Shown: positions 10,537-64,000, counted from the first letter of the stretch. The stretch: 64,000 nucleotides of DNA from Patescibacteria group bacterium (GCA_043800905.1 JAZDMO010000007.1:1627-65626), one strand, 5' to 3'. Notes: generated from the sequence alone by a model not told the origin. Numbers and translations are program-made.

Positions 10537-10542
10537 AAATTT

Positions 10543-12639: not shown

Positions 12640-12679
12640 AAATTTAGGGATCGTTTAATAAATTATGTTTCTTTTTGTG

Positions 12680-12712
12680 AAGGATTTTGCAGAGCAAAAT
12701 CCTTCCGTTTGT
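12680..12712 (+). terminator. intrinsic terminator after pilB
   Basis: Hairpin gaaggattttgc-agag-caaaatccttc followed by a T-run. Confidence 0.5.
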
Positions 12713-12754
12713 TTTATTTATTATTACTAGATTACGAAGTAATTTAGTATTCAT

Positions 12755-12843
12755 CGTCTGTCTGTTCGTCATTACGAGGAAAAAATTAAGGTTCAAAAGT
12801 TTTAAAACTTTTGAACCTTAATTTTTGACGTGGTAATCCAGAA
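12755..12843. repeat. copy of an approx. 90-bp hairpin repeat (cgtcattacgagg..aaggttcaaaagttttaaaacttttgaacctt..gacgtggtaatccag)
   Basis: Near-identical to 19029-19132. The internal hairpin differs from that copy by compensatory changes (ggttc/gaacc here, gcctc/gaggc there). Confidence 0.6.
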
Positions 12844-12859
12844 TTATATATTAAGACTT

Positions 12860-13340
12860 AATGAAAAATTAATCAGGCTGTTTTATAAAATTCTTTCTGG
12901 ATTGCTTCGTCACTCCACTGCGTTCCGTTCCTCGCAATGACGGACGACGAAAAGCAAAACGTCTCTGCGAGATCAGATTTTTTAATAAAAATCTGATCGT
13001 GGCAGTCCAGACTTGTGAAATCACGAAGTGATTTAATTAAAAAACTAAAACCTCACTCGCAAAGACGAAAAACAAAGTTTTTCGTTACGTTTTGCGTTAA
13101 GCAAAACGTCTCTGCGAGGCACGAAGCAGTCCAGTAATAAAGTGTTTTTAGGAGGAGTGAAATAATATGATACTTGTCCGCCTTGCCTGCCCCTGCACGC
13201 CGGCAGGCGGGGGTAGACAGGTTGCTTCGTAAACTCGCAATGATGAATGACGAGATGCTGGGTTGATTTATAGACTTGTAATGATAAGTGAATGGATTTT
13301 TTAAAGTAAGATCCCCCTTCCTAAATTTATTCGCCGTGGC
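12860..13340. mobile_element. composite cluster of nested GC-rich MITE-like modules filling the pilB-pilT intergenic region
   Basis: No ORF. Contains atcaggctg..ctggattgcttcg (an inverted copy of the terminus seen at 16090-16129), cctcgcaatgacg, gtctctgcgag twice, cagtccag, and ccttgcctgcccctgcacgccggcaggcggg (an inverted copy of the 58556/63797 module). Modules recur at 15894, 19029, 25482, 31203, 58337 and 63775. Confidence 0.55.
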
Positions 13341-13461
13341 GGGTGGTGGTGAATTTGCGGGTTTTCCCCAGCAAGAGAATATATTTCTTTTCTGTTTTCT
13401 TGTATAATTATAATTAAGATTTGGGTTTTAAAAAATCCAATAGCTCAATAAATTAAATTTT

Positions 13462-14520: not shown

Positions 14521-14532
14521 GAAAAAATAATT

Positions 14533-15738: not shown

Positions 15739-15800
15739 ACAGTTTTCAACTTTCAATTATCAGTTTTCATTAAATTTTCAATTGATAAATTATCAGTGAC

Positions 15801-16429
15801 ATGACCTATAATTTAGAGGAAAGAACCGCTAAATACTCTGAAAATGTTATTTCTTTGATTAAAAGTGTCAAAATAAGGCTTAATGAAAAAAATATCAGGC
15901 TGAAAATGATAAACTAGCTAGTCTTAATATTATTTAAAATGATTTTTAATTAAAAACTTAAATATTTAAATTATAAAGAATTTAATTGTTTTAAAAATTT
16001 CTAGACTGCTTCGCAAGCTCGCAGAGACGAATGATTTCATCGTCCATTCGTTATTGCGAGGAATAAGATGCAGAGAAACAGAATCTTATGACGAAGCAAT
16101 CCAGAAAGAATTTCATAAAATAGCCTGATTAATTTACTATTAAGCTCAAAATAACATTGTTAAACAAAAACATAGTTGAACAATTATCAAAATCAGCCAC
16201 AAGTATCGGGGTTAACTATCATGAAACGAATAACGCTAGTTCTAAGAAAGATTTTATAAATAAGATTTATTTTTGTAAAAAAGAGGCTAACGAAACAAGA
16301 TATTGGTTAGATTTATTAAATAAAAATGAAATAAAGTTTACAGAAGATATTGGTTTATTGAAAAAAGAGAATCAAGAACTAGTCATGATTTTCCAGAAAA
16401 TAATCAATACTTCAAACAACAAACATTGA
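15801..16429 (+). pseudogene. four-helix-bundle protein (23S-rRNA-IVS-protein family) gene, split into an N-fragment (15801-15920) and a C-fragment (16157-16429) by an inserted repeat element
   Basis: The N-fragment translation MTYNLEERTAKYSENVISLIKSVKIRLNEKNI... matches the family N-terminus and ends at a stop inside the inserted element. The C-fragment QLSKSATSIGVNYHETNNASSKKDFINKIYFCKKEANETRYWLDLL matches the family C-terminal half. Confidence 0.5.
15894..16129. mobile_element. 236-bp MITE-like element with 8-bp terminal inverted repeats (atcaggct/agcctgat), inserted into the four-helix-bundle gene
   Basis: Termini atcaggct (15894) and agcctgat (16122). Inside are ctcgcagagacg, cgttattgcgagg and gacgaagcaatccag modules. 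The same terminus plus adjoining approx. 35 bp occurs inverted at 12872-12906. Confidence 0.5.
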
Positions 16430-16574
16430 AAATTGAGAATTGTAAACTGAAAATTGTTTTGATTTATCCCCAGAAAGACTTTCTTTTCTTTGCTTTTTGG
16501 GAGTATAATCAAATAAACGCAAATTATATTTGTTATTAATTATTAGTTATTAATTTAATATTATTAAAAATAAT

Positions 16575-17069
16575 ATGAAGAAATTTATGAAAAAGGATAC
16601 AAAAGGTTTTTCTCTTATCGAACTTTTGATTGTGGTTGCGATCATGGGAATTCTATCCGCCGTTGTTTTAAGTTCTTTGGGAACTGCTCGACAAAAAGCG
16701 AGAGATGCTAGAAGAATTTCAGACGTAAAGGATGCCGCTAAGATTTTAGTTATTGCTTCTGATGTGGGAGGAATAAATATTTCAGGTTGTACCACCGCTA
16801 ACGTAGCTTTGAATACTTGTGGAGATGGAACTGATCAATTTATGGATTTAAGAAGTTATTCTGACCCATCAACAGCAACAGCTGTTTGTAGCGGTACAAC
16901 AACTGAAGGTCCTTGTGAATATGGTATTGCAAATATAGATGGAGACGCAAGAGCAACTACAGAAGATTACCAAATTTGTTTTTATCTTGAATATGGAGCA
17001 GGAGATCTTTCTTCTGGTTTAAATTCAGTTGTGGGTCCAATTGGAAACTTGGTAGCTGGTTGTAATTAA
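16575..17069 (+). CDS. type IV (major) pilin, paralog A
   Basis: Class III signal KKDTKG|FSLIELLIVVAIMGILSAVV with Glu at +5. Cys-rich C-terminal domain. The 5' flank and both ends are nearly identical to the gene at 18408. Confidence 0.75.
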   Translation: MKKFMKKDTKGFSLIELLIVVAIMGILSAVVLSSLGTARQKARDARRISDVKDAAKILVIASDVGGINISGCTTANVALNTCGDGTDQFMDLRSYSDPSTATAVCSGTTTEGPCEYGIANIDGDARATTEDYQICFYLEYGAGDLSSGLNSVVGPIGNLVAGCN

Positions 17070-17077
17070 TCTAAATT

Positions 17078-17500
17078 TTGATGATGTTTAATAAACAAAA
17101 TCAAATTGAAAAAGTAGAAACTCTGGGATGTTTAAAAACATCTCGGGGTTTTTCTTTGGTGGAATTGTTAGTATCTATTGCGATCATTGGTATTTTATCT
17201 TCCATTGTTTTAGTTTCTTTAGGAAGTGCTAGAGAAAAGGCCCGTTTAAGTAGAGTTCAAAGTCAAATGACCGCCTTACATCCTCATTTAATAATGTGTA
17301 TTAATGATGGAGTTTCTGTTGACTTTTCTTCTTCTGCTCCTACAGTTGGGGCATCTTTATGTTCTAGTACTAATGTTAATTTTCCAGAATTACCAGCGGG
17401 ATGGTCTTATGTTGTTAGTCCGGTTGGAAGTTATAGGGCTTCAGGAGAAGGGTATCAGGTTAATTGTACAGAAACTGGTTGTGTAACAACTACCCCTTAA
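17078..17500 (+). CDS. type IV pilin-like protein
   Basis: The prepilin motif SRG|FSLVELLVSIAIIGILSSIVLVSL lies after an approx. 20-aa leader. 140 aa. Confidence 0.6.
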   Translation: MMMFNKQNQIEKVETLGCLKTSRGFSLVELLVSIAIIGILSSIVLVSLGSAREKARLSRVQSQMTALHPHLIMCINDGVSVDFSSSAPTVGASLCSSTNVNFPELPAGWSYVVSPVGSYRASGEGYQVNCTETGCVTTTP

Positions 17501-18198
17501 TTATGTTTTTTAATTTTATAAAAAAAGAAAAGCAAGGTTTTCTAGAATATCAGACGGGGTTTACCCCATCAGAAATTTTTATGAAGATATTTGGTGATAT
17601 AAAGAAAAAAATAAGCAGTTTTTTAAAAAATGAAAAGCAAGGTTTTCTAGAATATCAGACGGGGTTTACCCCGTCAGGAATTTTTAATAGTTTGTTATCT
17701 ATAATAAGAAACAAAATGAAAAAAAATCTTTTTAATAAAAAACAAGATTCTTTGAAATTCCAATCGGGGTTTACTTTAACTGAACTTTTGGTGGCTATCG
17801 CGATTATTGGAATTTTATCTTCCATTGTTTTAACTTCAATGAGTGGGGCGAGAGAAAGGGCTAAGGATGGAAAAAGAATTTCTGATATTAAACAAATTCA
17901 GTTAGCTTTAGAATTATATTACGATGTAAATTCTGCTTATCCTGTAGATAATGGTTCTCAAAATATTTTGTATAACGATCCTAAACCTTTAACTAATTTT
18001 TTAAAAATTTCTCAAGACCCCGATGGAACTAATTACCATTATTGGAGTACGGGACAAGATTATCACCTAGGAGCTGTCTTACAACAAACAAATAATGCTT
18101 TAGATGACGACGATGATGCTACTGGTGGTTTTGAAGGTTCTAGTTCTGATTGTGGTTCTGTGACCGGAACAGATTTTTGTTACGATGTAACTCCTTAA
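17464..18198 (+). CDS. type IV pilin preceded by two tandem degenerate prepilin-leader cassettes; the functional start is probably the ATG at 17716
   Basis: The ORF contains two copies of an approx. 107-bp unit encoding KEKQGFLEYQTGFTPSEIF (17527-17580 and 17633-17687). These are followed by a canonical prepilin MKKNLFNKKQDSLKFQSG|FTLTELLVAIAIIGILSSIVL. Confidence 0.6.
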   Translation: MYRNWLCNNYPLIMFFNFIKKEKQGFLEYQTGFTPSEIFMKIFGDIKKKISSFLKNEKQGFLEYQTGFTPSGIFNSLLSIIRNKMKKNLFNKKQDSLKFQSGFTLTELLVAIAIIGILSSIVLTSMSGARERAKDGKRISDIKQIQLALELYYDVNSAYPVDNGSQNILYNDPKPLTNFLKISQDPDGTNYHYWSTGQDYHLGAVLQQTNNALDDDDDATGGFEGSSSDCGSVTGTDFCYDVTP

Positions 18199-18204
18199 AT
18201 TAAA

Positions 18205-18246
18205 AATGAAAAAAGCGGTGGGCTGGTGTCCACCGCTTTTTTTAAT
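18205..18246 (+). terminator. intrinsic terminator after the pilin at 17464
   Basis: aaaaagcggtgggctggtgtccaccgcttttttt: a GC hairpin plus a T-run. Confidence 0.6.
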
Positions 18247-18407
18247 AGAGTTATAAAAAGTAATCATTGTTTTGTTTAATTATTAATTATATTATTTAAA
18301 TGGGATAATTTTTAATCCTTTTAATTGAAGGTATTGTTTAATCAAATAGACACAAATTACATTTGTTATTAATTATTAGTTATTAATTTAATATTATTAA
18401 AAATAAG

Positions 18408-18917
18408 ATGAAGAAATTTATGAAAAAGGATATAAAAGGTTTTTCCCTTATTGAACTTTTGATTGTGGTTGCAATCATGGGAATTCTATCTGCTGTTGTT
18501 TTGAGTTCTCTAGGAACCGCTCGTCAAAAAGCAAGAGACGCTAGAAGAATTTCAGACGTAAAGGATGCCGCTAAGATTTTAGTTATTGCTTCTGATGTGG
18601 GAGGGGTGAGCATCTCAGGTTGTGGTTCTCCTGATGTCGCCTTAAAAACTTGTGGAGACCCTGATATTGAAAATGATCCTTTTATGGATTTAAGAAGTTA
18701 TTCTGACCCTTCTGTTTCTGAAGAAGTTTGTTCAAGTGGAAGAATTATTGCCGACGGTCCCTGTGAGTACGGAATATCTGATATGACTGGTGATGAAGCG
18801 CCCACCACAGAAGATTACCAAATCTGTTTTTTCCTTGAATATGGAGCGGGAGATCTTTCCGCTGGCCTAAATTCTGTTGTGGGTCCAATTGGAAACTTGG
18901 TAGCTGGTTGTAACTAA
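18408..18917 (+). CDS. type IV (major) pilin, paralog B
   Basis: The first approx. 60 aa and last approx. 35 aa are nearly identical to the gene at 16575. The central approx. 70 aa diverge. 78 bp of upstream sequence is conserved with 16497-16574. Confidence 0.75.
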   Translation: MKKFMKKDIKGFSLIELLIVVAIMGILSAVVLSSLGTARQKARDARRISDVKDAAKILVIASDVGGVSISGCGSPDVALKTCGDPDIENDPFMDLRSYSDPSVSEEVCSSGRIIADGPCEYGISDMTGDEAPTTEDYQICFFLEYGAGDLSAGLNSVVGPIGNLVAGCN

Positions 18918-18984
18918 ATTAATTTTTTAAGAAATTTAAGGTTTTTAATAACATAAATAATTATTATTTTCTTCTATTATTTAC

Positions 18985-19022
18985 TTATAAAGTAAAACCC
19001 GTCTTTAGGCGGGTTTTTATTA
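18985..19022 (+). terminator. intrinsic terminator after pilin paralog B
   Basis: gtaaaacccgtctttaggcgggtttttatt. Confidence 0.55.
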
Positions 19023-19028
19023 TCCTTT

Positions 19029-19132
19029 CTCGCAATGACGGTCCGCTTAGGGCGGACCGTCATTGCGAGGAAAAAATTAAGCCTCAAAAGTTTTAAAACT
19101 TTTGAGGCTTAATTTTTGACGTGGCAATCCAG
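19029..19132. repeat. palindromic repeat element (ctcgcaatgacggtccgc..gcggaccgtcattgcgagg + aagcctcaaaagttttaaaacttttgaggctt + gacgtggcaatccag)
   Basis: Two perfect hairpins in series. Same family as 12755-12843 and 31203-31302. Confidence 0.6.
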
Positions 19133-19225
19133 TAAAAATTTAAGTCTTTAAATCTAACCGAAACTATTTTTCAGATGGAAGGGTTTTGTTTTAATGTTCT
19201 GGTGTTTTAATGCTATAATATTTTT

Positions 19226-20050
19226 ATGGAAAAATACCTACTTTATTTTTTTGTTTTTGTTTTGGGAACTATTATTGGTTCTTTTTTGAATGTAGTGATT
19301 TTACGTTTTAAAAAAAATTCTTTAAATGGAAGTTCTTCTTGTCCCCGATGTAAAAAAAATTTAAGATGGTTTGAATTGATTCCAGTTTTAAGCTTCCTTT
19401 TTTTGAAGGGCAGATGTCGCTATTGTCAAAAGAAAATTTCTTGGCAGTATCCTTTAGTAGAAATAGCAACAGGATTATTATTTTTATTTTCTTTTATTTT
19501 TTCCGCCCAAGGCGGATCCGCCTTGGGCGGACAATTTTTCATTAACCTTATTATTTTATGGGTTGTTTTTAGTTTATTGGTAGTAATTTTTGTTTATGAT
19601 TTATACCATAAAATTATTCCTAATATTTTTGTATATCTTTTTATATTATTTTCTTTTTTAAAAGTCATCATAACTTTTCAAAATTTTTCTTTCGGGGCTG
19701 ATATTTGGGCGGGGTTTTTAGTCTCTTTTCCTTTTGCTTTTTTATGGTTTGTTTCAGGAGGAAGGTGGCTTGGTTTTGGAGATGTAAAATTAGCCTTAGG
19801 TATTGGTTGGTTTTTAGGTTTAGTTCAGGGTTCTACTGCAGTTATTTTAGCTGTTTGGATGGGAGCCTTGGTTGGTTTGATTTTGGTTGGTTTAACAAAG
19901 TTATCCGAAAAACATAGATTGTTTTTTAGGCTTAATAATTTTACAATTAAAAGTGAATTACCTTTTGCCCCCTTTTTAATATTAGGTATTGTGATCACTT
20001 TTTTCTTTGACTTAGATGTTTGGGGCTTGGGAGCTTTGCTTCATGGTTAA
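19226..20050 (+). CDS. pilD: prepilin peptidase PilD (A24 family) carrying an in-frame palindromic insertion
   Basis: N-terminal zinc-ribbon CPRC...CRYC, a polytopic membrane domain, and the C-terminal GFGDVKL catalytic Asp region. 19503-19530 is the perfect palindrome ccgcccaaggcggatccgccttgggcgg, which encodes SAQGGSALGGQ in frame. Confidence 0.8.
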   Translation: MEKYLLYFFVFVLGTIIGSFLNVVILRFKKNSLNGSSSCPRCKKNLRWFELIPVLSFLFLKGRCRYCQKKISWQYPLVEIATGLLFLFSFIFSAQGGSALGGQFFINLIILWVVFSLLVVIFVYDLYHKIIPNIFVYLFILFSFLKVIITFQNFSFGADIWAGFLVSFPFAFLWFVSGGRWLGFGDVKLALGIGWFLGLVQGSTAVILAVWMGALVGLILVGLTKLSEKHRLFFRLNNFTIKSELPFAPFLILGIVITFFFDLDVWGLGALLHG

Positions 20051-20651: not shown

Positions 20652-21371
20652 ATGAAAATATTAAAACAAAAATTAAAAAGAATTAATTCTCTAGAATATC
20701 AGATGGGGTTTATCCTGTCAGTAATTTTTAAAAATATGATTAATTTTTTAAAAAACAAAACGACTAAAATATTCAAAGATAAAAAAGAGGGTTCTTTGAA
20801 ATTTCAAACAGGGTTTACATTGGTGGAAATGATTACAGCTGTAGCAATTTTTGCTTTGGTGATGGTTGTGGCTATGGGTTCTTTATTGAATGTCCTATCT
20901 GCTAATAGACAAAGCCAAGCAATTCAAACCGCAGTGAATAACCTTAATCTTGCAATGGAAACCATGTCTCGTGAGATTAGAACAGGTTACAATTATCATT
21001 GTGGTTCCTGTTTTGGGTCAGATTGTACTACTGATAATGACTGCCCCGCAGGTGATTCTTCTATTGCCTTTGAACCTTATAATGGGAATCCCTCTTCTTA
21101 TAGTGATCAAGTAATTTTTATGTTTGATCAGGATAATCAACAGATTCTAAAATCGACTAACAACGGAGATGATTATTTAGGATTAACTTCTCCTGAATTA
21201 CATGTGGAAGATTTGACTTTTATTGTAGTCGGTTCGGATCCTAGTGATACTAGACATCCTAAGGTCTTAATTACCGCTAGCGGTTATGTTCAAAGCGATT
21301 CTAATACTCAAACTTCTTTTAACTTACAAACAACAGTTTCTCAAAGGTTAATTGATTTTGATTTATGGTAA
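20652..21371 (+). CDS. pseudopilin with one upstream degenerate leader cassette; probable true start at the ATG at 20736
   Basis: Upstream cassette NSLEYQMGFILSVIF, then MINFLKNKTTKIFKDKKEGSLKFQTG|FTLVEMITAVAIFALVMVV. Confidence 0.55.
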   Translation: MKILKQKLKRINSLEYQMGFILSVIFKNMINFLKNKTTKIFKDKKEGSLKFQTGFTLVEMITAVAIFALVMVVAMGSLLNVLSANRQSQAIQTAVNNLNLAMETMSREIRTGYNYHCGSCFGSDCTTDNDCPAGDSSIAFEPYNGNPSSYSDQVIFMFDQDNQQILKSTNNGDDYLGLTSPELHVEDLTFIVVGSDPSDTRHPKVLITASGYVQSDSNTQTSFNLQTTVSQRLIDFDLW

Positions 21372-22219
21372 AAATAATGAATTTAAAAAATAAAAAACAA
21401 GATTCTTTGAAATTCCAATCGGGGTTTACCCCGTCAGAAATTTTTAGTAGTTTGCTATCTATAATAAGAAACAAAATGAAAAAAAATCTTTTTAATAAAA
21501 AACAAGATTCTTTGAAATATCAGACGGGGTTTACCCCATCAGAAATTTTTATAAAGATATTTGGTAATATAAAGAAAAAAATAAGCAGGTTTTTAAAAAA
21601 TGAAAAGCAAGGTTTTGTAGAATATCAGACGGGGTTTACCCTGTCAGTAATTTTTAAAAATATGATTAATTTTTTAAAAAACAAAACGACTAAAATATTC
21701 AAAGATAAAAAAGTGGGTTCTTTGAAATTTCAAACAGGGTTTACCCTGATAGAAACTTTTGTGGCTGTTACGGTTTTGTTGATTGCCATCACCGGTCCTT
21801 TGTATTTAGTAGCAAAAGGTTTGTCAGTTTCTAAATCTGCTAAAAATCAGGTGACAGCTATGTATTTGGCTCAAGAAGCTGTTGAATATATTCGAAATAT
21901 TCGAGATGAAAATATTTTAAAAGGTCAGGATTGGCTGACTGGTTTAGATTATTGTTTAAATGGTAGTAAGTGTGCTATTGATTCGCCTCAAGAAGAAATC
22001 CTCTTGTGTTCGGGAGTTTGTAATTTTTTGAAATATGATGAAGATAAATATCTTTATACCTATTCCAGCGGGACAGCTAGTCCTTTTCGTCGAGAAATTA
22101 GTCTTTTACCTATTGGCAACACTGGGACAGAGGTAGAAATTTTAGTTGATATGTATTGGAATGATGGACCAAATCAAAAAGATTTTGAGGTTAGAGAACA
22201 TTTGTTGAATTGGCAATAA
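21365..22219 (+). CDS. pseudopilin whose 5' region is a mosaic of four prepilin-leader cassettes
   Basis: Encoded cassettes: KKQDSLKFQSGFTPSEIF, KKQDSLKYQTGFTPSEIF, KQGFVEYQTGFTLSVIF, and finally VGSLKFQTG|FTLIETFVAVTVLLIAITG. DNA blocks are near-identical to 17583-17680, 17700-17760 and 20736-20820. Confidence 0.55.
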   Translation: MVKIMNLKNKKQDSLKFQSGFTPSEIFSSLLSIIRNKMKKNLFNKKQDSLKYQTGFTPSEIFIKIFGNIKKKISRFLKNEKQGFVEYQTGFTLSVIFKNMINFLKNKTTKIFKDKKVGSLKFQTGFTLIETFVAVTVLLIAITGPLYLVAKGLSVSKSAKNQVTAMYLAQEAVEYIRNIRDENILKGQDWLTGLDYCLNGSKCAIDSPQEEILLCSGVCNFLKYDEDKYLYTYSSGTASPFRREISLLPIGNTGTEVEILVDMYWNDGPNQKDFEVREHLLNWQ

Positions 22220-35586: not shown

Positions 35587-36753
35587 ATGCGAAAAAAGAT
35601 TTTAATATTTTCAACAGCCTACGAGCCCTTTATGTCTGGGGCAGAAGTGGCTGTTAAAGAAATCACTGATCGTTTAGGCGAAAGCTGTGAATTTTTCATG
35701 ATTACAGCACGGATGGATAAAAATTTGTCTAAGAAAGAAAAAATAGGAAATATAAATGTTTTTCGTGTGGGTTTTGGTTTTAAAAATCTGGATAAATTTC
35801 TCCTGCCTTTTTGCGGATTGTGGGTGGCTTTAAAAAATTATAAGAAAGAGAATTATCAAATTGTTTGGTCTATTATGGCAAGTCAGGCGAGTATCGGAGC
35901 TTCTTTTTTTAAGATTTTAAAACCACAGGTTAAATTATTGTTAACTTTGCAAGAAGGAGATGAAGAGGAATATTTAAAAAGATATGTTGGGGGGAGTGAT
36001 TTTTTGTATCGATTTTTAATTCAACCATGGCATCTTTTGGTTTTTCATAAGGCGGATTTGATTCAGACTATTAGTTTTGATTTAAAAAATAGAGCTTTGA
36101 AAAATGAGGTTGTTTGTCCTATTGAGGTTATTCCTAACGGAGTAGATATTGAAAATTTTAGTCAAAAATATTCGGTGACGGAATTAGATTCTTTAGCGAA
36201 AAGTTTAGGTAAAGAAGAAGACGACATTTTTTTAGTACACACGGGGCGTTTTAATTATAAAAATGGTTTAGAAGATTTGATCAAGTCTTTAATTTATTTA
36301 CCCCTTAATATTAAATTACTTTTATTGGGTGGGGGGATTGATGAAGAAAAATTAAAGGAGGTTGTGATGGAACGAAGTTTGGAAAAAAGAGTTAAGTTTT
36401 TGGGTTTTATTAATCATCAAGAATTACCAAAGTATTTGAGAATATCAGATATCTTTGTTCGTCCTTCTTTATCGGAAGGTTTGGGAAATTCTTTTTTGGA
36501 AGCCATGGTGGTTAAATTAGCAGTGATTGCTACCCCAGTGGGAGGTATTCCTGATTTTTTAAAAGACGAAGAAACCGGTTTATTTTGTATCGTACATAAT
36601 CCGGAATCCATAGCCGAAAGAGTGAAGAAAATTTTGGCTGATAAAAAATTGAAAGATTATATAGTTGAAAAAGCTTATAAAATGGTTATTAAAAAATATG
36701 ATTGGAATTTGATTGCTGTTGATATGGGAAAAATATTTGATTCTTTGGTATGA
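35587..36753 (+). CDS. glycosyltransferase family 4 (GT-B, group 1)
   Basis: C-terminal PSLSEGLGNSFLEAMVVKLAVIATPVGGIPDF (EX7E-type motif). Confidence 0.7.
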   Translation: MRKKILIFSTAYEPFMSGAEVAVKEITDRLGESCEFFMITARMDKNLSKKEKIGNINVFRVGFGFKNLDKFLLPFCGLWVALKNYKKENYQIVWSIMASQASIGASFFKILKPQVKLLLTLQEGDEEEYLKRYVGGSDFLYRFLIQPWHLLVFHKADLIQTISFDLKNRALKNEVVCPIEVIPNGVDIENFSQKYSVTELDSLAKSLGKEEDDIFLVHTGRFNYKNGLEDLIKSLIYLPLNIKLLLLGGGIDEEKLKEVVMERSLEKRVKFLGFINHQELPKYLRISDIFVRPSLSEGLGNSFLEAMVVKLAVIATPVGGIPDFLKDEETGLFCIVHNPESIAERVKKILADKKLKDYIVEKAYKMVIKKYDWNLIAVDMGKIFDSLV

Positions 36754-37859
36754 AAAATATTTTAATTACAACTGGGGTTTATCCTCCAGAAATAGGTGGT
36801 CCTGCGACTTATTCTAAGTTACTTTTTGATGAATTGCCTAAACGAGGCTATGAAGTAGAAGTTTTGCCTTTTAATGAAGTCCGCCATTTACCAAAAGGGA
36901 TTCGTCATATTGTCTATTTTTTTAAAATTTTAAAAAAGGCTAAGGGTGTTGATATTATTTATGCCCAAGATCCAGTTAGTGTTGGTTTCCCTTCAATGTT
37001 GATGGCTAGAATTTTAAACAAAAGATTTTTTGTGAGAATTGCTGGTGATTATGCTTGGGAACAGGGAGTTCAGAGATTTGGGATTACGGAAGATTTAGAT
37101 TCTTTTGCTGAAAAAGAAAAAGGTTATAATTTTTTTGTAAAAATATTTAAAACAATTCAAACTTGGGTGGCTGGAGATGCTGAAAATGTCATTGTCCCTA
37201 GTTATTATTTTAAAGGAATTATTGAAAAATGGGGAATAGATTCTGAAAAAATAAAGGTAATTTACAACGGAATTAGATTAAACGAGTCAAACCTGCCTGC
37301 CGGCAGGCAGGAGTCGAAAGTCCATAATGTCGAAGGGAAGGTTTTGTTGTCAGTGGGGAGATTGGTTCCATGGAAAGGTTTTAAAGTTTTAATTGAATGT
37401 ATACCAGAGCTTTTGAAAGAAATTCCGAATTTAAAATTAAAAATTGTGGGAAGTGGTCCGCAAAAAGAAGAATTAGAAAATTTAATTAATGAATTGGATT
37501 TAAACGAAAGTGTGGTTTTGGCAGGGCAATTATCTAGAGAGGAATTGTTGGAAGAAAAGAAAAGGGCTGATATTTTTGTTTTTAATACTAATTGGGAATC
37601 TTTTTCTTTTGATACTGTGGAAGCCATGTCTTTGGGTTTGCCTGTGATTGCAACAGAAGTGGGGCCTTTGCCTGAATTGATAGAAAATGGAAAAGAAGGA
37701 ATTTTAGTTGAACCGAATAATAAAGACCAGATTATAGAATCGATTCTGTTTGTTCTAAAAAATAATAAATTTAGAGAAAAAATTATTAAAAATGCGAGAT
37801 TAAAAGTTCAGCGATTTTCTATTGAAAATACTTTGGATGAATTAGAAAAAGTTCTTTAA
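36750..37859 (+). CDS. glycosyltransferase family 4 carrying an in-frame copy of the 20-bp palindrome
   Basis: GT4 C-domain SFDTVEAMSLGLPVIATEVGPLPELI. 37292-37311 cctgcctgccggcaggcagg is translated as LPAGRQ in the interdomain region. Confidence 0.7.
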   Translation: MKNILITTGVYPPEIGGPATYSKLLFDELPKRGYEVEVLPFNEVRHLPKGIRHIVYFFKILKKAKGVDIIYAQDPVSVGFPSMLMARILNKRFFVRIAGDYAWEQGVQRFGITEDLDSFAEKEKGYNFFVKIFKTIQTWVAGDAENVIVPSYYFKGIIEKWGIDSEKIKVIYNGIRLNESNLPAGRQESKVHNVEGKVLLSVGRLVPWKGFKVLIECIPELLKEIPNLKLKIVGSGPQKEELENLINELDLNESVVLAGQLSREELLEEKKRADIFVFNTNWESFSFDTVEAMSLGLPVIATEVGPLPELIENGKEGILVEPNNKDQIIESILFVLKNNKFREKIIKNARLKVQRFSIENTLDELEKVL

Positions 37860-39120: not shown

Positions 39121-40203
39121 ATGAAATTATTAATCGTAACGCAAAAAGTAGATAAGAATGATGATGTACTCGGTTTTATGCACGGGTGGATTTCTGAATT
39201 TGCAAAACATTGTGAAAAGGTGACAGTAATTGCTTTAGGTGTGGGTGAATATGATTTACCTCGAAATGTAAAAGTCTTATCCTTGGGAAAGAATAATTTG
39301 TTATTGCGAGGAGTGAAGCGAAGCGGAACGACGTGGCAATCCAGCAACAAAAGTCGTAAAAAATATATTTTTAATTTTTATAAATATATCTGGCAGGAGC
39401 GAAAAAATTACGATAATGTGTTTGTTCACATGAACCCCGAATACGTGGTTCTAGGGTCAATTTTATGGCGATTTTGGGGTAAAAGGGTGGGACTTTGGTA
39501 CACACATAAGGCTGTTAATTTAAAGTTAAGGATAGCTGAGAAAATGGCTAATTTGGTGTTCTCGGCTAGTTCAGAATCTTTTGGTTTAAAAAGCAAAAAA
39601 CTTCATATTACGGGTCATGGAATTAATTTAGAACAGCTTAAAATTAAGAAAGATAAAATTCAAAATGAGATTTTCAAAATGATTTTAGTCGGAAGGATTG
39701 CTCCCATAAAAAATCAAGACATCTTGATTAAATCGGCGGTAATTTTAAAAAATAAATATCTGGATTTTAAATTTAAAATTGATTTAATTGGTGGGGCTGA
39801 TTCATATGTTCAAAGAGAATATAAAGTGCTTCTTGAAAGTTTGGTTAAAACAAATAATTTAGAAAATGAAATTAGTTTCGTTTCTCCTGTCGCTAATAAA
39901 GAAATCAATGCTATTTATGAAAAAGCGAATTTAAGTTTAAATTTGTGTCCCACAGGAGGAGCTGACAAAGTGGTTTTGGAATCAATGGCTTGTGAATTGC
40001 CTGTTATAGTTTTTAATAAAACCTTTGAGAATATTTTACCCGAAGAATTAATTTTAGAAAAATTAGAACCAGAACTTTTAGCAGAAAAAATTTATGAAAT
40101 TTCTCAGAAGAAAAATTTGAATTTTGGATTAAGAGAAAGGGTTGAAAAAAGTCATAATTTGAAAAAATTAATCATTAAGATTTTAAATTTATATTATGCT
40201 TAA
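39121..40203 (+). CDS. GT-B glycosyltransferase (GT4-like) carrying an in-frame repeat-element fragment
   Basis: GT-B C-domain features (CPTGGADKVVLESMACELPVIVF). 39301-39344 ttattgcgaggagtgaagcgaagcggaacgacgtggcaatccag is a family half-element, translated as LLRGVKRSGTTWQSS. Confidence 0.5.
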   Translation: MKLLIVTQKVDKNDDVLGFMHGWISEFAKHCEKVTVIALGVGEYDLPRNVKVLSLGKNNLLLRGVKRSGTTWQSSNKSRKKYIFNFYKYIWQERKNYDNVFVHMNPEYVVLGSILWRFWGKRVGLWYTHKAVNLKLRIAEKMANLVFSASSESFGLKSKKLHITGHGINLEQLKIKKDKIQNEIFKMILVGRIAPIKNQDILIKSAVILKNKYLDFKFKIDLIGGADSYVQREYKVLLESLVKTNNLENEISFVSPVANKEINAIYEKANLSLNLCPTGGADKVVLESMACELPVIVFNKTFENILPEELILEKLEPELLAEKIYEISQKKNLNFGLRERVEKSHNLKKLIIKILNLYYA

Positions 40204-57901: not shown

Positions 57902-58306
57902 ATGCTTGATAAAAAAAGATTTTCTATTGTTTTAATGGTTTTAATCTATGTAATTTTGATTATGGATATACTGGCTTTTAGATTTTTCCTTTATTGGCGC
58001 TTTTGGTGGTTTGATATAGTAATGCATTTTTTGGGTGGAATTTGGATAATGTTGGTGAGTTATTATATTTTTTATCTTTCGGATTATGCTGAGTATGTAA
58101 GACATTTGAGTAAAAAATATTCTCCTTTTATTTTATCTTTGTCTTCAATTGCTTTTGTGGGAATTTTTTGGGAATTGTTTGAATTGACAACTAAAGTTTC
58201 TATTCAATCAAATTATGTTTTAGACACAAGTTTAGACTTGTTTATGGATATGAGTGGTTGGATAGTGGCTTATACCTATGTGGAAAAAAGAACAAGAAAG
58301 CGTTGA
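57902..58306 (+). CDS. hypothetical integral membrane protein
   Basis: 134 aa, four predicted TM helices. Confidence 0.3.
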   Translation: MLDKKRFSIVLMVLIYVILIMDILAFRFFLYWRFWWFDIVMHFLGGIWIMLVSYYIFYLSDYAEYVRHLSKKYSPFILSLSSIAFVGIFWELFELTTKVSIQSNYVLDTSLDLFMDMSGWIVAYTYVEKRTRKR

Positions 58307-58336
58307 TATTTTTTAAATTAAAAAATTAAAACTTTA

Positions 58337-58641
58337 TTCGCAATGATATTTATTTACTGGATTGCCACACCGAGCGCCAAAAACTTTAATTAAAGTTTTT
58401 GGTGCTCGGCTCGCAATGACGAACGAACGGATGTTGGACCTGCCTGCCGGCAGGCAGGTTGCCATGATATCGCTCGCAATGACGAGATGCTGGGTTGCTT
58501 CGTAAACTCGCAATGACGAACTGACGAATAAACACTGGATTCCTCCCAAGCCTACCTGCCCCCGCCTGCCGGCGTGCAAGGGCAGGCAGGGCGGACAAAT
58601 GCCACAGAATTTTTTAAAACAAAAAATTCTTCGCAATGACG
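58337..58641. mobile_element. approx. 300-bp cluster of nested GC-rich repeat modules
   Basis: Contains ctggattgcc, ctcgcaatgacg three times, the 20-bp palindrome 58439-58458, gacgagatgctgggttgcttcgtaaactcgcaatgacg (inverted at 13215-13260), and tggattcctcccaagcctacctgcccccgcctgccggcgtgcaagggcaggcagggcgg (copy at 63775-63835). The ORFs tracked here on the minus strand are translations of the repeats. Confidence 0.6.
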
Positions 58642-58838
58642 ATAATTTTTTGGGATGTTTTTTCTTTGTTTTTTATGTTGTTTTTTGGTATAATTTTTCG
58701 GTTATACTTAACAGAGTTGCAAGTTTTTAAAGTTTATAAAATTCGTAAAGTTTATCTGTAGGTAGATAGAAAATTACTTTGTAATTTTTTCGAAATATTT
58801 TTTGACTTTAAATCTGTATTAGAAATTAAAATACTTTT

Positions 58839-60554
58839 ATGTTAAACAAAATAGGTTTAGGTAGTGTCCAAAATAGAATAATGAGGATCAAGGAACTTCG
58901 TCGCAATCAAAGAATTTTGATTTTATTAGTAATATTGATTTTGGCGGTGGTGTTATATCAACAGGTAGTCATCAAAGATATTTTAGAAGAAACTGTAATG
59001 ACTTCAGAGGCAAGACTGGTAGAAGTTTCTTCTGTTAAAGATTTAACACTTGATAATACTCCTTTACCTTTATTGGGAAAGGTTCAGTCTCAATCATCGG
59101 CAATAATTTATTCTCAGAGTGCTGGGGAGGTAATTGGTTTGTATAAAAAAGAAGGAGATTTTGTTTGGGCAGATCAAATCATCGGAGAAATAGATAATTG
59201 GGCTCAAAGATCAACTGTAATTCAAGCTGAAGCAAATGTTGAAATGGCAACTGCCCAACTGGAAAAAATTAAAAAAGGTGCTAGGGAAGAACAAATTTCT
59301 ATTCTAAAAGCCACTTTGAATAATTCCCAAAATTCTTTAAACGAAACTAAGGCATCGGTTATCAATACTTTAAATGATGCCTACGGAAAATCAGATGATG
59401 CTATTCGTAATAAAATAGATCCTATGTTTCGAGACCCTCGCAACGAGGCTCCGCAGTTACTTTTTTCTGTGAATGATTCTCAGTTAGAGATTGATTTGGA
59501 ATGGGGAAGAAGAATAATTGAAGAAATGTTGAAAGTTTGGGAAAAAGAATTAAGTGTTTTAAACACGGAAGCGGATTTAATTAAAGCTTTGAACACTGCA
59601 AAAGATAACGTGGATTCGGTGAGAACTTTTTTGGATAAAATGGCGACGGCTGTTAATGTGCTAACTCCTAATTCTAATTTATCAGAAACAACAATTGCTA
59701 CATGGAAAGCAAATGTAAGTGCTAGCCGATCGGTTATTAATTTGGTGGTGGCAAGTATTCCGGCTTCTATTAATTCTTTAAATGGAGCTAATTCATCTTT
59801 AAGTATCGCTCAATTAAATTATGAACAAGCTCTTTCTGGAGAGAGAACAGAAGATATCATCAGTGCTGAAGCTCAGTTAAAACAAGCGCAGGCAGGTTTA
59901 CAGGTGGCTTATTCTTCTTTAGAAAAAACTATTTTAAGAGCTCCGATTAGTGGAACCATTAATGATCTTGGTTTTGAAAAAGGTGACTTTGTATCAACCT
60001 ATGCTCCTTTGGTAACAATTGCGAATAATGCGAAACTTGAAATTGTTTCTTATATTACAGAAGTAGATCGAAGTGATATTCAGGTTGGAGCAAACGTTTT
60101 AGTTGGTAAAAAATGGAAGGGAACGGTAAAGACTATTGCTCCCGCTTTAGATTCTCAAACTAAAAAAATTAAAGTAGAAATTTCTTTGATTGATTCTGAT
60201 GTTCCTTTAACTAATGGACAATCTATTGCTTTGTTGGTTGAGAGGTTTGTTAAGAAAGAAGGTTCCTTAAGTGAATTTTCGGTGCCGATTTCTGCTATTA
60301 AAATTGGAGCTGATAACACGGTAGTTTTCACTATTAACAATGAAAATCGTTTGGTGGCCCATCCTGTTTTAACCGGTCCAATTTTAGGGGAAAAAATTAC
60401 TATTTTAGATGGAGTAACTGAAGATATGGTTATTGTGACGGACGCTCGTGGTTTGCGGGAAGGACAAGAGGTCGTTTTAGCTCCTTCTTTAGGAACCTCT
60501 AATCCAGAGAAAAAAGAAACAGATTCGACATTAAATAATCTAAATCAAAATTAA
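58839..60554 (+). CDS. HlyD-family membrane fusion (periplasmic adaptor) protein
   Basis: N-terminal TM anchor, long coiled-coil region, and a C-terminal beta-barrel/lipoyl-like segment (APISGTINDLGFEKGDFVS). Confidence 0.7.
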   Translation: MLNKIGLGSVQNRIMRIKELRRNQRILILLVILILAVVLYQQVVIKDILEETVMTSEARLVEVSSVKDLTLDNTPLPLLGKVQSQSSAIIYSQSAGEVIGLYKKEGDFVWADQIIGEIDNWAQRSTVIQAEANVEMATAQLEKIKKGAREEQISILKATLNNSQNSLNETKASVINTLNDAYGKSDDAIRNKIDPMFRDPRNEAPQLLFSVNDSQLEIDLEWGRRIIEEMLKVWEKELSVLNTEADLIKALNTAKDNVDSVRTFLDKMATAVNVLTPNSNLSETTIATWKANVSASRSVINLVVASIPASINSLNGANSSLSIAQLNYEQALSGERTEDIISAEAQLKQAQAGLQVAYSSLEKTILRAPISGTINDLGFEKGDFVSTYAPLVTIANNAKLEIVSYITEVDRSDIQVGANVLVGKKWKGTVKTIAPALDSQTKKIKVEISLIDSDVPLTNGQSIALLVERFVKKEGSLSEFSVPISAIKIGADNTVVFTINNENRLVAHPVLTGPILGEKITILDGVTEDMVIVTDARGLREGQEVVLAPSLGTSNPEKKETDSTLNNLNQN

Positions 60555-60558
60555 TTTC

Positions 60559-63500
60559 ATGAAAGATTTTTGGACTTTTTTTATAAGAAAAAGAGCGTTC
60601 ACTAGTTTATTAGTTATTTCTTTAACAATTGCTGGGATTTTTTCTTTGGTTAAAATTACCAAAGAGTCATCTCCTGAAATTCAAATTCCTTTAGCGATTG
60701 TTTCTACTTTTTTACCAGGGTCTTCTGCTTACGATACGGAAAGATTAATTACGGATAAGATTGAAGACCAATTGATTAATAATCTTGATACTGTAAGTAA
60801 GGTATCTTCTACTTCGGGGGAAGGAATTTCTTCAATTACAGTAGAATTTAATGCTGATGCTGATATTCCTAGTTCAATTCAAAAGGTTAAAGATGAGGTA
60901 GATAAAGTTAAGGGAGAATTGCCAACTGAAGCTGAGGATCCTATTATTTCTGATATTAATTTTGCCGATCAGCCGATTTTAATGTTTTCTATTTCTAGCG
61001 ATTTACCAACAACCGAGTTTATTAAATTAGCTGATAATGTTGAAGCAAAATTAAAAACTGTTAGTGGTGTTTCTAAGTTAGGTATTAGTGGTATTCAAAA
61101 AAGAGAGGTACAAGTTATCGTTGATAAGGCAGCCTTATCTAAATTTAATTTAGGGATTTCTGATTTAGTTTCTGCTATTTCTCGCGCCAATAGTTCTATT
61201 CCGGTAGGAAATATTGAAATTTCTGGAATTAAATATCCGTTAAAATTTAAAGGAGATATTACCGATACCGCCGTGATTAAAGATATTCCGGTTTTGAATT
61301 TGGGAGGGGAAGTTATTTATGTTAGAGATTTAGCCTTTGTTTCAGATGGGGTTTCCCAACAAAATTCTTATTCTCGTATTAGCTTGGACGGAGAGCCTTC
61401 TCAACAAGCGGTTTCTTTCTCTGTTTATAAAAAACGTGGTGGAGATATTACTTCTATTGTGAATGGAGTAAAAAAATCTATAGAAGAAATGCAAAACGGT
61501 GGAATTTTAGAGGGATCCGAAGTTTTGTATTCGGTGGATATGGCAGAATATTTGAAAGACGATTTAAATAATCTTTCGGGTTCTGGTTTGGTAACCGTCT
61601 TTCTGGTGGTGATGATTTTGTATTTATCTATCGGTTGGCGAGAAGCTTTAATCGCTGGTTTAGCTATTCCATTTTCCTTCTTAATTGCCTTTATCGGTTT
61701 GTATTCTAGTGGAAACACTATTAATTTTATTTCTTTGTTTGCTTTGATTTTAGCGGTCGGAATTTTGGTCGATTCTGCCATTGTGGTAACGGAAGCGATG
61801 CACACCAAAATTAAAGATGGAATGGGTGGAAAAGAATCAGCTATCGCAACTATAAAAGAATTTTATATGTCTTTGACCTCAGGGACCATGACTACGGTGG
61901 CCGCTTTTTTCCCTTTATTTTTTCTGTCAGGAATTATGGGTAAGTTTGTGAGTGGAATTCCTTATACTTTGATTTTTGTTTTGTTTGCTTCTTTGTTTGT
62001 TGCTTTAGGAATTGTGCCTTTAATTGCCATGTTAGTTTTGAAAAAAAATGGAAATTCAAATGGTAAGTTGTTTAAATTCCAAACTAAATACAATAATCTT
62101 CTTAAAGATTGGTATGAAGTTCGCTTGAAAAATATTATTTTAAATCGAAAATTTCAAAATAAATTTTTATGGGCTATGGGAATAGCTTTGGTGTTATCTT
62201 TTATTTTACCTTTAAGTGGTTTATTAAAAACGACCTTATTTCCAGATGAAGATCAAAAGTTTATTTATGTAGATGTGGAGATGCCTCAAGGAACTGTTTT
62301 GGCAGAAACTGATATGGCGGTGCGAGCAGTAGAGGAAATTCTTTATAATCAACCTTTTATAGAATCTTTTGAAACTAGTGTTGGGGCAACAAATTCTTTC
62401 AGTAATTCAGGATCTAGTTCTGGTGAAAAATTTGGAAATATGACGGTGATTTTGCGTAAGGATAGGAGTAAAACCAGTTACGAAATTGTTGAAGTTTTAA
62501 GAAAAGAATTGGCTCCTATTAAAATTGCAAAGGTAATTGTTGCTCAGCCAGGAAGCGGGCCTCCTTCAGGAGCACCGATTACAATTAAATTTTTTGGAGA
62601 TGATTTAGATAATTTGGAAAAGGTTGTTTTTCAAGCAGGTGAGGTTTTGAAAGAAATTTCTGGGACTGTTGATGTGACCAATAGTATGGAAAATAATGTA
62701 ATTGAATTTGTTTTATCTATTGATAGGGCAAAGCTGGCAGAAAATAATCTTTCTCCTGTTTCTTTAGCACAGGTTTTAAGAACTTCTATTTATGGTGTCG
62801 ATGCTACAACTATTAAAACAGCTGGGGAAGATATTGATGTTTTGGTTAAATTAAATTTAAATTCAGAAAATATTGATCCCAGCTTAACTTCTCAAACAAC
62901 AGTAGATGCTATTCGCCAAATGGAAATTAGTACACCACAAGGAAAGGTTTTGTTGGGTTCTTTGCTGGATATTAGTTTAAGTAAAAATAATTCTTCGATT
63001 ATTCATGAAGATGGAGATCGAGTAGCGACTGTTTCCAGTCAGTTGGCAAAGGGGGCAAACGCTGTAGAAATTAATAAAGAATTTCAAAAAAAGATTGATG
63101 ATGGAACCTTATCTATTCCAGAAGGGATTAGGTTGAAGACTGGAGGAGAAAATGAAGATATTATGAAAACTTTTACTGAAATGTTAATGGCTTTAGTTGC
63201 TGGATTGCTTTTGGTGATTGTGGTTTTGATTTTACAATTTGATTCTTTCAAACAAACTTTCTTTATTGTGGTGGGAGTGATGATGTCATTGATCGGAGTT
63301 TTGGTCGGTTTGACTATTACAGGAAATGCTTTTTCTTTCCCTTCTTTTATTGGAGTGATTGCTTTGGCTGGAATTGTGGTAAATAATGCTATTATTTTGA
63401 TTGATACCATGAATTCTATGCGAATGGAAAAACCAGATTTAGAATTAGTTGAGGTGGTAATTCAATCTTCAATTACACGTTTGCGTCCAATTTTGTTAAC

Positions 63501-63651
63501 GACCTTAACTACTGTGATTGGTATGGTACCTTTGATTTTTGCTTCTAGTATGTGGGCTCCTTTGTCATTTTCAATTATCTTTGGACTTTCTTTTGCAACT
63601 GTGATTACTTTAATTTTGGTACCAGTTTTGTATGTGAGATATACGAAATAA
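60559..63651 (+). CDS. RND superfamily efflux permease (AcrB/HAE-type, 12 TM, 1030 aa)
   Basis: Two large periplasmic loops and the duplicated 6-TM architecture. Conserved TM4-like GLAIPFSFLIAFIGLY and TM10-like segments. Confidence 0.85.
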   Translation: MKDFWTFFIRKRAFTSLLVISLTIAGIFSLVKITKESSPEIQIPLAIVSTFLPGSSAYDTERLITDKIEDQLINNLDTVSKVSSTSGEGISSITVEFNADADIPSSIQKVKDEVDKVKGELPTEAEDPIISDINFADQPILMFSISSDLPTTEFIKLADNVEAKLKTVSGVSKLGISGIQKREVQVIVDKAALSKFNLGISDLVSAISRANSSIPVGNIEISGIKYPLKFKGDITDTAVIKDIPVLNLGGEVIYVRDLAFVSDGVSQQNSYSRISLDGEPSQQAVSFSVYKKRGGDITSIVNGVKKSIEEMQNGGILEGSEVLYSVDMAEYLKDDLNNLSGSGLVTVFLVVMILYLSIGWREALIAGLAIPFSFLIAFIGLYSSGNTINFISLFALILAVGILVDSAIVVTEAMHTKIKDGMGGKESAIATIKEFYMSLTSGTMTTVAAFFPLFFLSGIMGKFVSGIPYTLIFVLFASLFVALGIVPLIAMLVLKKNGNSNGKLFKFQTKYNNLLKDWYEVRLKNIILNRKFQNKFLWAMGIALVLSFILPLSGLLKTTLFPDEDQKFIYVDVEMPQGTVLAETDMAVRAVEEILYNQPFIESFETSVGATNSFSNSGSSSGEKFGNMTVILRKDRSKTSYEIVEVLRKELAPIKIAKVIVAQPGSGPPSGAPITIKFFGDDLDNLEKVVFQAGEVLKEISGTVDVTNSMENNVIEFVLSIDRAKLAENNLSPVSLAQVLRTSIYGVDATTIKTAGEDIDVLVKLNLNSENIDPSLTSQTTVDAIRQMEISTPQGKVLLGSLLDISLSKNNSSIIHEDGDRVATVSSQLAKGANAVEINKEFQKKIDDGTLSIPEGIRLKTGGENEDIMKTFTEMLMALVAGLLLVIVVLILQFDSFKQTFFIVVGVMMSLIGVLVGLTITGNAFSFPSFIGVIALAGIVVNNAIILIDTMNSMRMEKPDLELVEVVIQSSITRLRPILLTTLTTVIGMVPLIFASSMWAPLSFSIIFGLSFATVITLILVPVLYVRYTK

Positions 63652-63677
63652 ATATATAAAAGCTTGATAAAAAATAA

Positions 63678-63712
63678 AAAAGCGATAATTTTAAATTATC
63701 GCTTTTTTATTA
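63678..63712 (+). terminator. intrinsic terminator after the RND gene
   Basis: aaaaagcgataattttaaattatcgcttttttatt. Confidence 0.6.
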
Positions 63713-63774
63713 TTCCATTTTTAGAAGTAAAACCTTCGCCTTTAGGTGATTATTCAAACATTTTTTTAAAATCT

Positions 63775-63965
63775 GGATTCCACCCAAGCCTACCTGCCCC
63801 CGCCTGCCGGCGTGCAGGGGCAGGCAAGGCGGACAGGTGCCACACAAGGTTTTTTGATTTTTCTTCAAAAATCAAAAAACTGTATAATTATGACGACCGT
63901 CATAATTATACAGTTTGTTTTTTTTGCTAGACCTGTCTACTGGCAGGCAGGCTTGGGTGGAATTC
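63775..63965. mobile_element. approx. 190-bp MITE-like element with approx. 25-bp terminal inverted repeats and nested internal palindromes; further family modules run to the window end
   Basis: Left end ggattccacccaagcctacctgcc, right end ggcaggcaggcttgggtggaattcc. Internal cctgccggcgtgcaggggcaggc, the hairpin ttgatttttcttcaaaaatcaa, and the perfect 16-bp-arm palindrome ctgtataattatgacg-a-ccgtcataattatacag (63880-63913). Confidence 0.6.
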
Positions 63966-64000
63966 CGCCTCTAACCGTCTCTGCGAGCTTGCGAAGCAGT

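Follow-up and report, generated by a model that had tools for sequence, protein, structure and literature searches.

A compound palindromic repeat, probably of the REP kind, downstream of an RND pump gene in a Patescibacteria genome

The repeats described in the literature that are closest to those considered here are the CGTC-tagged REPs (Di Nocera, De Gregorio & Rocco 2013, BMC Genomics 14:522, PMC3733652), in which an unpaired CGTC tag is followed by a stem of 8-9 bp, with A and T as its first two positions and with a loop of 4-5 nt, and then by a CCA tail. They are present mostly as inverted dimers, some of which are 1-2 bp apart, are located between unidirectional or convergent ORFs, have some intragenic copies and have no linked transposase (PMC3733652). 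In the same 2013 survey they are not linked to RAYTs and are reported in Proteobacteria, Chlorobi, Bacteroidetes, Spirochaetes and Thermotogae, with Patescibacteria not listed, while Neisseria dRS3 is assigned to CGTC-1 and the Rickettsia RPE-4 and RPE-6 to CGTC families (PMC3733652). The sequence of Neisseria dRS3 is ATTCCCNNNNNNNNGGGAAT, i.e., ATTCCCN8GGGAAT (PMC1797815).

The element studied here lies near the end of the window, by which we mean the whole stretch of 64,000 nt of a Patescibacteria genome that was analysed, and follows an ORF of an RND pump (60559-63651; ACR_tran, E = 3e-176; 100% identical to MFH0846046.1). The original prediction, made from the sequence alone, took it to be a MITE-like element with 25-bp terminal inverted repeats (TIRs). 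By contrast, we consider, with a probability of about 0.65, that it belongs, as a compound member, to the non-autonomous palindromic repeats of the REP/BIME/NIME kind and is not a transposon with TIRs and target-site duplications (TSDs). The element comprises two inverted units of the main repeat family of the genome, the CGTC ends of which face each other across 2 nt at 63896/63897.

Anatomy of the element

The features of the element and of its immediate surroundings are given below, one per line.

63673..63711, no strand: terminator of the MFP-RND operon, intrinsic and bidirectional (terminator-like on both strands), with A and T runs on either side of an 18-bp stem
63773..63798, minus strand: left terminal arm, CTGG-ATTCCACCCAAGCCTACCTGCC; the minus strand ends ...GGTGGAAT-CCAG
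63775-63798: left TIR of the original prediction, GGATTCCACCCAAGCCTACCTGCC
63793-63824: GC-rich imperfect palindrome, 16-nt arms, 81%
63797..63835, plus strand: core of the GC-rich module, CCCCCGCCTGCCGGCGTGCAGGGGCAGGCAAGGCGGACA, with no counterpart in the right arm
63836..63848, minus strand: segment containing GCCAC, GGTGCCACACAAG; GCCAC is the complement of the canonical tail segment GTGGC
63849..63880, no strand: perfect AT-rich hairpin, arms 63849-63862 and 63867-63880 (14 nt, 100%), 4-nt loop
63880..63913, no strand: central palindrome, 16+2+16, CTGTATAATTATGACG-AC-CGTCATAATTATACAG; two CGTC-AT heads facing across 'AC'
63929..63951, no strand: right-arm palindrome of the P type, degenerate, AGACCTGTCTACTGGCAGGCAGG; 83% to AAACCTGCCTGCCGGCAGGCAGG, the P palindrome present at 29608, 37289 and 58436
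63942..63966, plus strand: right terminal arm, GGCAGGCAGGCTTGGGTGGAAT-TCC, in which the stem of the right unit ends and is followed by a degenerate tail
63976..64000, plus strand: next canonical unit, CGTCTCTGCGAGCTTGCGAAGCAGT.., cut by the end of the window; compare 16001-16029 and 13107-13134

The element begins 122 nt past the stop codon of the pump and 62 nt past the terminator at 63673..63711, which, being upstream of the element, is context and not repeat. Its true left edge is the CTGG at 63773, the complement of the CCAG tail of the family, and the left terminal arm at 63773..63798, when read on the minus strand, is a REP-type stem end followed by the CCAG tail. On the other side the outer limit of the element is at or before 63975, because the next canonical unit starts at 63976.

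The terminal inverted copies that had been predicted are indeed present, at 63775-63798 and 63942-63966, with the end of the right arm corrected. Compared ungapped, 63775-63798 and 63942-63965 agree as inverted copies at 22/24 positions, and with the right arm extended to 63966 there are 1 mismatch and 1 indel relative to the left arm (22-24/25 positions). A search of the window with the terminal arm gave 3 matches, and 0/100 shuffles reached three. The GC-rich imperfect palindrome and the AT hairpin that had been noticed inside the element are also found, at 63793-63824 and 63849-63880, respectively. The central palindrome, which had been described as a perfect one of 34 bp, is located at 63880-63913 and is not perfect, having the form 16 + AC + 16, and its arms can be extended to 28 nt at 89%. 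Two features had been missed, namely an inverted match of 39 nt at 13175-13213, which is discussed below, and the palindromy over the whole length. When the left half is aligned to the reverse complement of the right half, the whole of 63767-63975 proves to be a single long palindrome, imperfect and with its centre at 63896/63897, and only two inserts in the left arm break the symmetry, i.e., ~32 extra GC-rich nt and the AT hairpin. Folded as single-stranded DNA the element has -61.2 kcal/mol with z = -12.0 (as RNA, z = -11.3), and in the DNA folding its two halves pair with each other and not inside a unit.

At the centre, the left half ends with ..ATTATGACG and the right half begins with CGTCATAAT..., the CGTC tags occupying 63898-63901 (plus strand) and 63895-63892 (minus strand), with AT coming next in both halves. 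The heads of both halves are degenerate (CGTCATAATTATAC versus the canonical CGTCATTGCGAG). At the outer ends, the tail of the left half is AAT-CCAG (the complement of 63773-63779) and that of the right half is a degenerate TCC. Both units bear at the tail end a GC-rich module composed of ATTCCACCCAAGCC and a CCTGCC..GGCAGG palindrome. The left unit has two extras, namely the AT hairpin and, nested in the GC palindrome at its dyad, a palindrome of 20 nt. In the core at 63797..63835 the nested one is the P-like palindrome CCCGCCTGCCGGCGTGCAGG, which has 17/20 positions in common with the P palindrome. A second P-like palindrome, CCTACCTGCC|GGCAGGCAAGG, has this nested one precisely at its dyad, giving the form CCTACCTGCC|..|GGCAGGCAAGG. 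The AT hairpin at 63849..63880 occupies the variable-hairpin position of the left unit and is without counterpart in the right arm. The module of the right unit is simpler, with a degenerate copy of the 20-bp palindrome CCTGCCTGCCGGCAGGCAGG, which is also present at 29608, 37289 and 58436, followed by CTTGGGTGGAAT.

The repeat family and the sister copies

On one strand the consensus of the family is CGTC-ATTGCGAG, then a variable segment that is usually a perfect hairpin, then (AC)GWRGCAAT-CCAG. About 20 units of this type (CGTCATTGCGAG..variable hairpin..GCAATCCAG) are present in the 64-kb window, 11 of which are strict units of 28-80 nt and about 10 of which are degenerate or partial. All of the canonical units start with CGTC, save two with TGTT/CGTT, and they end with CCAG, with an interior of 3-56 nt that is usually a perfect AT-rich palindrome. 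The units are present in both orientations, often alternating, and nearly all are intergenic. They account for 1,171/6,719 nt (17%) of the intergenic DNA and have a GC content of 47.6%, compared with 25.0% for the remaining intergenic DNA and about 31% for the whole window. Not counting the flagged pair, at least six further pairs have their CGTC ends facing, with spacers of 13-41 nt: 12942/12960 and 19040/19058 with 17 nt, 16029/16049 with 19 nt, 25531/25573 with 41 nt, 13067/13107 with 39 nt, and a sixth pair at 31205/31224.

The only conserved pairing inside a unit is that of 5 bp between ATTGC and GCAAT, and the minimal units of 28-29 nt fold no better than their shuffles. The idea that the minimal units are true hairpins was thus rejected, and it follows that the conserved head and tail act as sequence motifs and not as a stem. 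A separate observation is that the two 75-nt units at 12767-12841 and 19058-19132, which are of one subtype, are 92% identical, with paired differences (GGTT..AACC versus GCCT..AGGC) that keep both palindromes perfect.

Two other loci of the window carry parts of the left unit.

58535..58641, minus strand: sister unit, CGTC-ATTGCGAAG, AT hairpin, CTGTGGC, 58-nt GC module, AAT-CCAG
13175..13213, minus strand: third copy of the core of the GC module, inverted, 39 nt 100% identical to 63797-63835

The left ~75 bp of the element had been predicted to be nearly identical to 58536-58610, and the identity is 93% over 72 nt (58535-58606), or, compared ungapped with the sister, 89% over 87 nt. The arrangement CTGG-ATT|module|GCCAC at the start of the element is the same as that in the sister. 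In the canonical units GTGGC is joined straight to AATCCAG, whereas in the sister unit the GC module stands between GTGGC and AATCCAG. As GTGGC directly abuts AATCCAG in the canonical units, the GC module is seen to be inside the canonical tail. The third copy adjoins a degenerate canonical unit at 13218-13247. The so-called TIRs are thus the tail-end modules of two inverted units, pairing together. The sister has the left TIR, has no right TIR and ends in TCGCAATGACG, which is the canonical end of the main repeat family of the window. It follows that the termini of the family, for the definition of which this element had been proposed as the clearest unit, are not the 25-mers but the CGTC... 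head and the ...AATCCAG tail.

Some of the repeats are exceptions to the intergenic placement and lie in-frame in genes, namely one canonical unit and two short GC palindromes. The canonical CGTC-type unit of 46 nt at 39299-39344 is in a glycosyltransferase gene (39121-40203) and encodes LLLRGVKRSGTTWQSS; the 20-bp palindrome CCTGCCTGCCGGCAGGCAGG at 37289-37311 is in another, a GT4 glycosyltransferase gene (36750-37859), and encodes NLPAGRQE; and the perfect 30-bp GC-rich palindrome TCCGCCCAAGGCGGATCCGCCTTGGGCGGA at 19502-19531 is in the prepilin peptidase gene (19226-20050) and encodes SAQGGSALGG. The CCGCCCAAG motif of the last one resembles the flagged TIR and a motif of Omnitrophota described below. 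The in-frame palindrome and unit in the glycosyltransferase genes behave in this respect like the Rickettsia palindromic elements (RPEs). In a related Patescibacteria contig a minimal unit of 28 nt, CGTCATTGCGAGGGACGAGGCAATCCAG, lies inside the pheT coding region (L012, 18851-18878). On the other hand, the ORFs called at 58334-58636 (minus strand, 100 aa) and 63664-63930 (plus strand, 88 aa) consist almost entirely of repeat units and are likely spurious; a Pfam scan of the 88-aa ORF gave no match. For annotation this means that the repeats yield spurious ORFs, add in-frame peptides to real genes and can mislead MITE and ncRNA calls.

It is also noted that repeat clusters, at 12767-13290, 16001-16104 and 19029-19132, are interspersed in the type IV pilus cluster at 8145-20050 (pilM, pilO, pilB, pilT, pilC, several pilins and prepilin peptidase), which recalls the Neisseria NIME arrays near pilus genes. 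In this region a truncated ORF of a 23S-rRNA-intervening-sequence protein (16157-16429) adjoins a repeat pair, and a pilin block is duplicated (16503-16802 versus 18336-18635, 89%). Several type IV pilin-like genes with Pfam N_methyl matches contain tandem repeats with a 105-bp period, or have them at their 5' parts (17526-17810, 20675-20850, 21391-21800).

Beyond this genome, at least 120 IMG/VR contigs (L018-L137) contain the pattern CGTCATTGCGAG-N3-33-GCAATCCAG, and therefore the canonical family is of an already known, very widespread kind. Among the matches listed there are 190 units, mostly of 30 or 36 nt, many with small variable hairpins between the head and the tail, and the median GC content of the loci is 65%. 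That the exact 12-nt head and 9-nt tail are common to this AT-rich window and to loci of such GC content points to a sequence-specific trans-acting partner. Among the same listed matches, the CCAG ends face each other in 39/41 close pairs, often across spacers of 16-18 nt, an orientation opposite to that seen in this window.

The GC-rich module has its own distribution. A scan of IMG/VR with its core gave no match. The 22-mer ATTCCNCCCAAGCCTNCCTGCC was found at 3 loci in 185,579 GTDB species genomes and at 5 in the JGI metagenomes, all of which, except one locus judged to be chance, belong to a different, three-hairpin element of ~100-125 nt in Omnitrophota. This locus, L006 in the JGI metagenomes, and L017, the single match in IMG/VR, were both judged to be chance, both being on contigs of 65% GC and L017 apparently in coding sequence. 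The Omnitrophota element is multi-copy, occurs in MAGs and metagenome contigs (L001-L005, L007 and L008; e.g., L003 7800-7900) and has the form ACATTCGC, variable hairpin, TCAGTATTCCGCCCAAGCCTGCCTGCC, loop, GGCAGGGAA, hairpin, GGCTCCATTT. It shares 21/22 nt with the flagged arm and module and has a few compensatory pairs; no Rfam family was found for it.

Genomic setting and alternative explanations

In the relatives L010, L012 and L015, the pumps of which are 74-78% identical, the next conserved gene downstream is relA/spoT, convergent on the pump. Based on this synteny, the element is probably located between convergent genes, the window ending at 64000. At the orthologous loci of relatives with pumps 74-88% identical, different CGTC units or none are present downstream of the pump. 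The repeat content at the pump locus turns over between relatives, and there is no clean empty site among them. The central palindrome together with its A and T runs (63877-63916) is terminator-like on both strands; among its 18 pairs only 4 are G-C, and the terminator of the pump at 63673-63711 is stronger-placed than it. At the repeat clusters at 12767, 19029 and 63773, the neighbouring genes have their own terminators upstream of the clusters, at 12679-12705, 18994-19017 and 63673-63711, respectively.

In the preferred explanation, a REP-type compound repeat, the element would have arisen by inverted duplication of one unit, or by the pairing of two units, together with the gain of nested palindromes, and it would spread by the same process as the CGTC-tagged REPs. 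A trans-acting enzyme would presumably recognise the hairpins in single-stranded DNA and the unpaired CGTC and CCAG motifs, with gene conversion helping the spread, and the perfection of the palindromes would be maintained by gene conversion or by intrastrand templating. To our knowledge, no mobilising enzyme is known for CGTC REPs. The element would most probably act as an additional stem-loop, effective in both directions, against read-through or for the protection of RNA 3' ends; failing that, it may be neutral, tolerated DNA. Against the assignment to the REPs it should be noted that the stem and loop depart from the published definition, that the heads are degenerate and the right tail is TCC and not CCA, and that the close pairs among the IMG/VR matches listed are mostly CCAG-facing, unlike those of the window.

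The first alternative is that the element is a purely local product, i.e., that a single unit was once duplicated in inverted orientation, or amplified as a palindrome, and that the result has been retained as a bidirectional terminator between convergent genes and is immobile as a unit. This would explain why it is a singleton in all of the data searched and why its palindromy extends over the whole length, and it is also consistent with the central palindrome and T runs being terminator-like on both strands and with the convergent relA/spoT downstream in the relatives. However, the pump operon already has a strong terminator about 60 nt upstream, and the modules recur at 58535 and 13175 with 93-100% identity, so that at least parts of the element have been copied around the genome. 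We thus regard this alternative as unlikely, though deserving of some weight. It overlaps the preferred explanation and differs from it only on whether parts of the element still spread.

A second and more speculative proposal, which we hold to be rather improbable, concerns the GC-rich module (ATTCC-R-CCCAAGCCT-CCTGCC..GGCAGG hairpin). The module might be a putative recognition site of a recombinase or nuclease, common to phyla or horizontally transferred, by which palindromes would be inserted into existing ones at their dyads. Compatible with this are the 21/22 match of the module to the Omnitrophota element, the position of the module within the tail of a REP, where the dyad of one palindrome is exactly the place of another, of 20 nt, and the short GC-rich palindromes in-frame in the prepilin peptidase and glycosyltransferase genes, one of them with CCGCCCAAG. 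If this proposal were true, it would mean an active, transposase-independent system of palindrome propagation in the reduced CPR genomes.

The original prediction corresponds to a classical MITE, i.e., a deletion derivative of an IS that is moved in trans by a DDE transposase binding the 25-bp TIRs and inserts with a TSD. The TIRs match at 22-24/25 positions, and the size of ~190 bp, the intergenic place and the strong hairpin potential all fit; what stands of this prediction is that the element is a member of a repeat family, has inverted termini and is a plausible non-autonomous repeat. If it were a MITE, however, its boundaries would be expected to have a direct repeat, and there is none: the flanks are ..TTAAAATCT| and |GCCTCTAACC, and the likeness outside the TIRs is inverted (TTA/TAA), not direct. 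No second full-length copy was found in the 64-kb window, the 185,579 GTDB species genomes, the JGI metagenomes or IMG/VR. The original prediction had itself named a lack of further full-length copies or TSDs as the sign of a local inverted duplication in place of a mobile unit, and within these data no such copies or TSDs were found. Moreover, the sister copy has only one TIR, and the inverted symmetry spans the whole element and not the ends alone. With regard to a transposase, none of the 62 ORFs called in the 64-kb window (0/62) matches a transposase family, and no Y1_Tnp or other HUH domain is present among them. RAYT genes are normally single-copy, and one could be located elsewhere in the genome. 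An inverted pair of REP-type units with nested palindromes fits the structure better than a TIR/TSD transposon, and we consider the MITE reading very unlikely. As a partner of the repeats, a GIY-YIG or other nuclease beside the repeat clusters was also considered and was dropped because the small ORFs there are GatC and the fragment of the 23S-rRNA-IVS protein. The window also contains a GmrSD_N + HNH endonuclease gene (1679-2770) and an HTH + SocA/Panacea antitoxin-like gene (3786-4469).

The last alternative, that the element is a structured non-coding RNA gene or a cis-regulatory RNA with the nested helices as its functional product, is hardly credible, in spite of the RNA folding and of the 22-nt motif and adjacent CCTGCC/GGCAGG hairpin common to the Omnitrophota element with its few compensatory pairs, given that Rfam 15 gave no match at gathering score across the window and only two microRNA-model matches at chance level (E about 0.2) in 58300-64000 at E <= 1, that the helices are near-perfect DNA palindromes typical of DNA-level repeats, that the element is not kept at the orthologous locus in relatives and that no promoter is predicted for it.

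Comparison with known repeat systems

The Correia elements and other bacterial MITEs resemble the flagged element in having a length of 100-200 bp, terminal inverted repeats of ~25 bp, an intergenic location and the potential to form hairpin RNA. They differ in that the interior of Correia elements is conserved, that their full-length copies number in the hundreds and that a TA target is duplicated; nothing of this kind is seen for the flagged element. The Rickettsia palindromic elements and the GC clusters of yeast mitochondria are short GC-rich palindromes scattered in an AT-rich genome, sometimes in-frame in genes, and the in-frame examples of the window at 19502-19531, 37289-37311 and 39299-39344 are like the former. 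The RPEs are longer (about 100-150 bp) and in defined families, and the yeast clusters are without sequence relationship to the repeats of the window.

With the REPINs and their RAYT transposases (Bertels & Rainey 2011, PMC3116915) the element has in common that two inverted REP-type units form one long hairpin as a possible replicative unit and that it is non-autonomous. By contrast, the REPINs are made of GTAG-type REPs flanking a single-copy RAYT gene, and there is no RAYT or Y1 transposase in the window. With regard to dRS3 and the NIMEs, the flagged stem ATTCCACCC...GGGTGGAAT resembles ATTCCC...GGGAAT, as judged by inspection of the consensus only. In addition, inverted GC-richer repeats bracket AT-richer segments of 50-150 bp, clusters lie near pilus genes and the array content turns over. 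The difference is that here the outer stem has 22 bp, compared with 6 bp, and the interior is itself palindromic. We know of no phage or recombinase that targets the flagged dRS3-like stem.

The closest comparison is with the CGTC-tagged REPs. The units of the window differ from these in having a 5-bp stem and an interior of 3-56 nt that is usually a perfect AT-rich hairpin, where the published families have a stem of 8-9 bp and a loop of 4-5 nt. In addition, the tail of the flagged element contains a GC-rich module of 58 nt, and the host phylum is outside the five listed. Such repeats in Patescibacteria are reported neither in the 2013 survey nor in the other literature searched, where the sequence strings matched nothing but unrelated primers, so if the assignment is right the superfamily of CGTC-tagged REPs would extend to the Patescibacteria (CPR), which have small genomes and few mobile elements. 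Although elaborate, the flagged element is in itself an ordinary representative of its class, the points of note being the architecture of nested palindromes, the module common to Omnitrophota and the in-frame palindromes in genes. The element agrees with the CGTC-tagged REPs in being an inverted dimer and in its location, the convergent partner gene being predicted from synteny. The units of the window share with the CGTC-tagged REPs the CGTC tag, the AT start, the CCA(G) tail, the inverted dimers, the intergenic place after genes, the occasional in-frame intragenic copies and the lack of a linked transposase.
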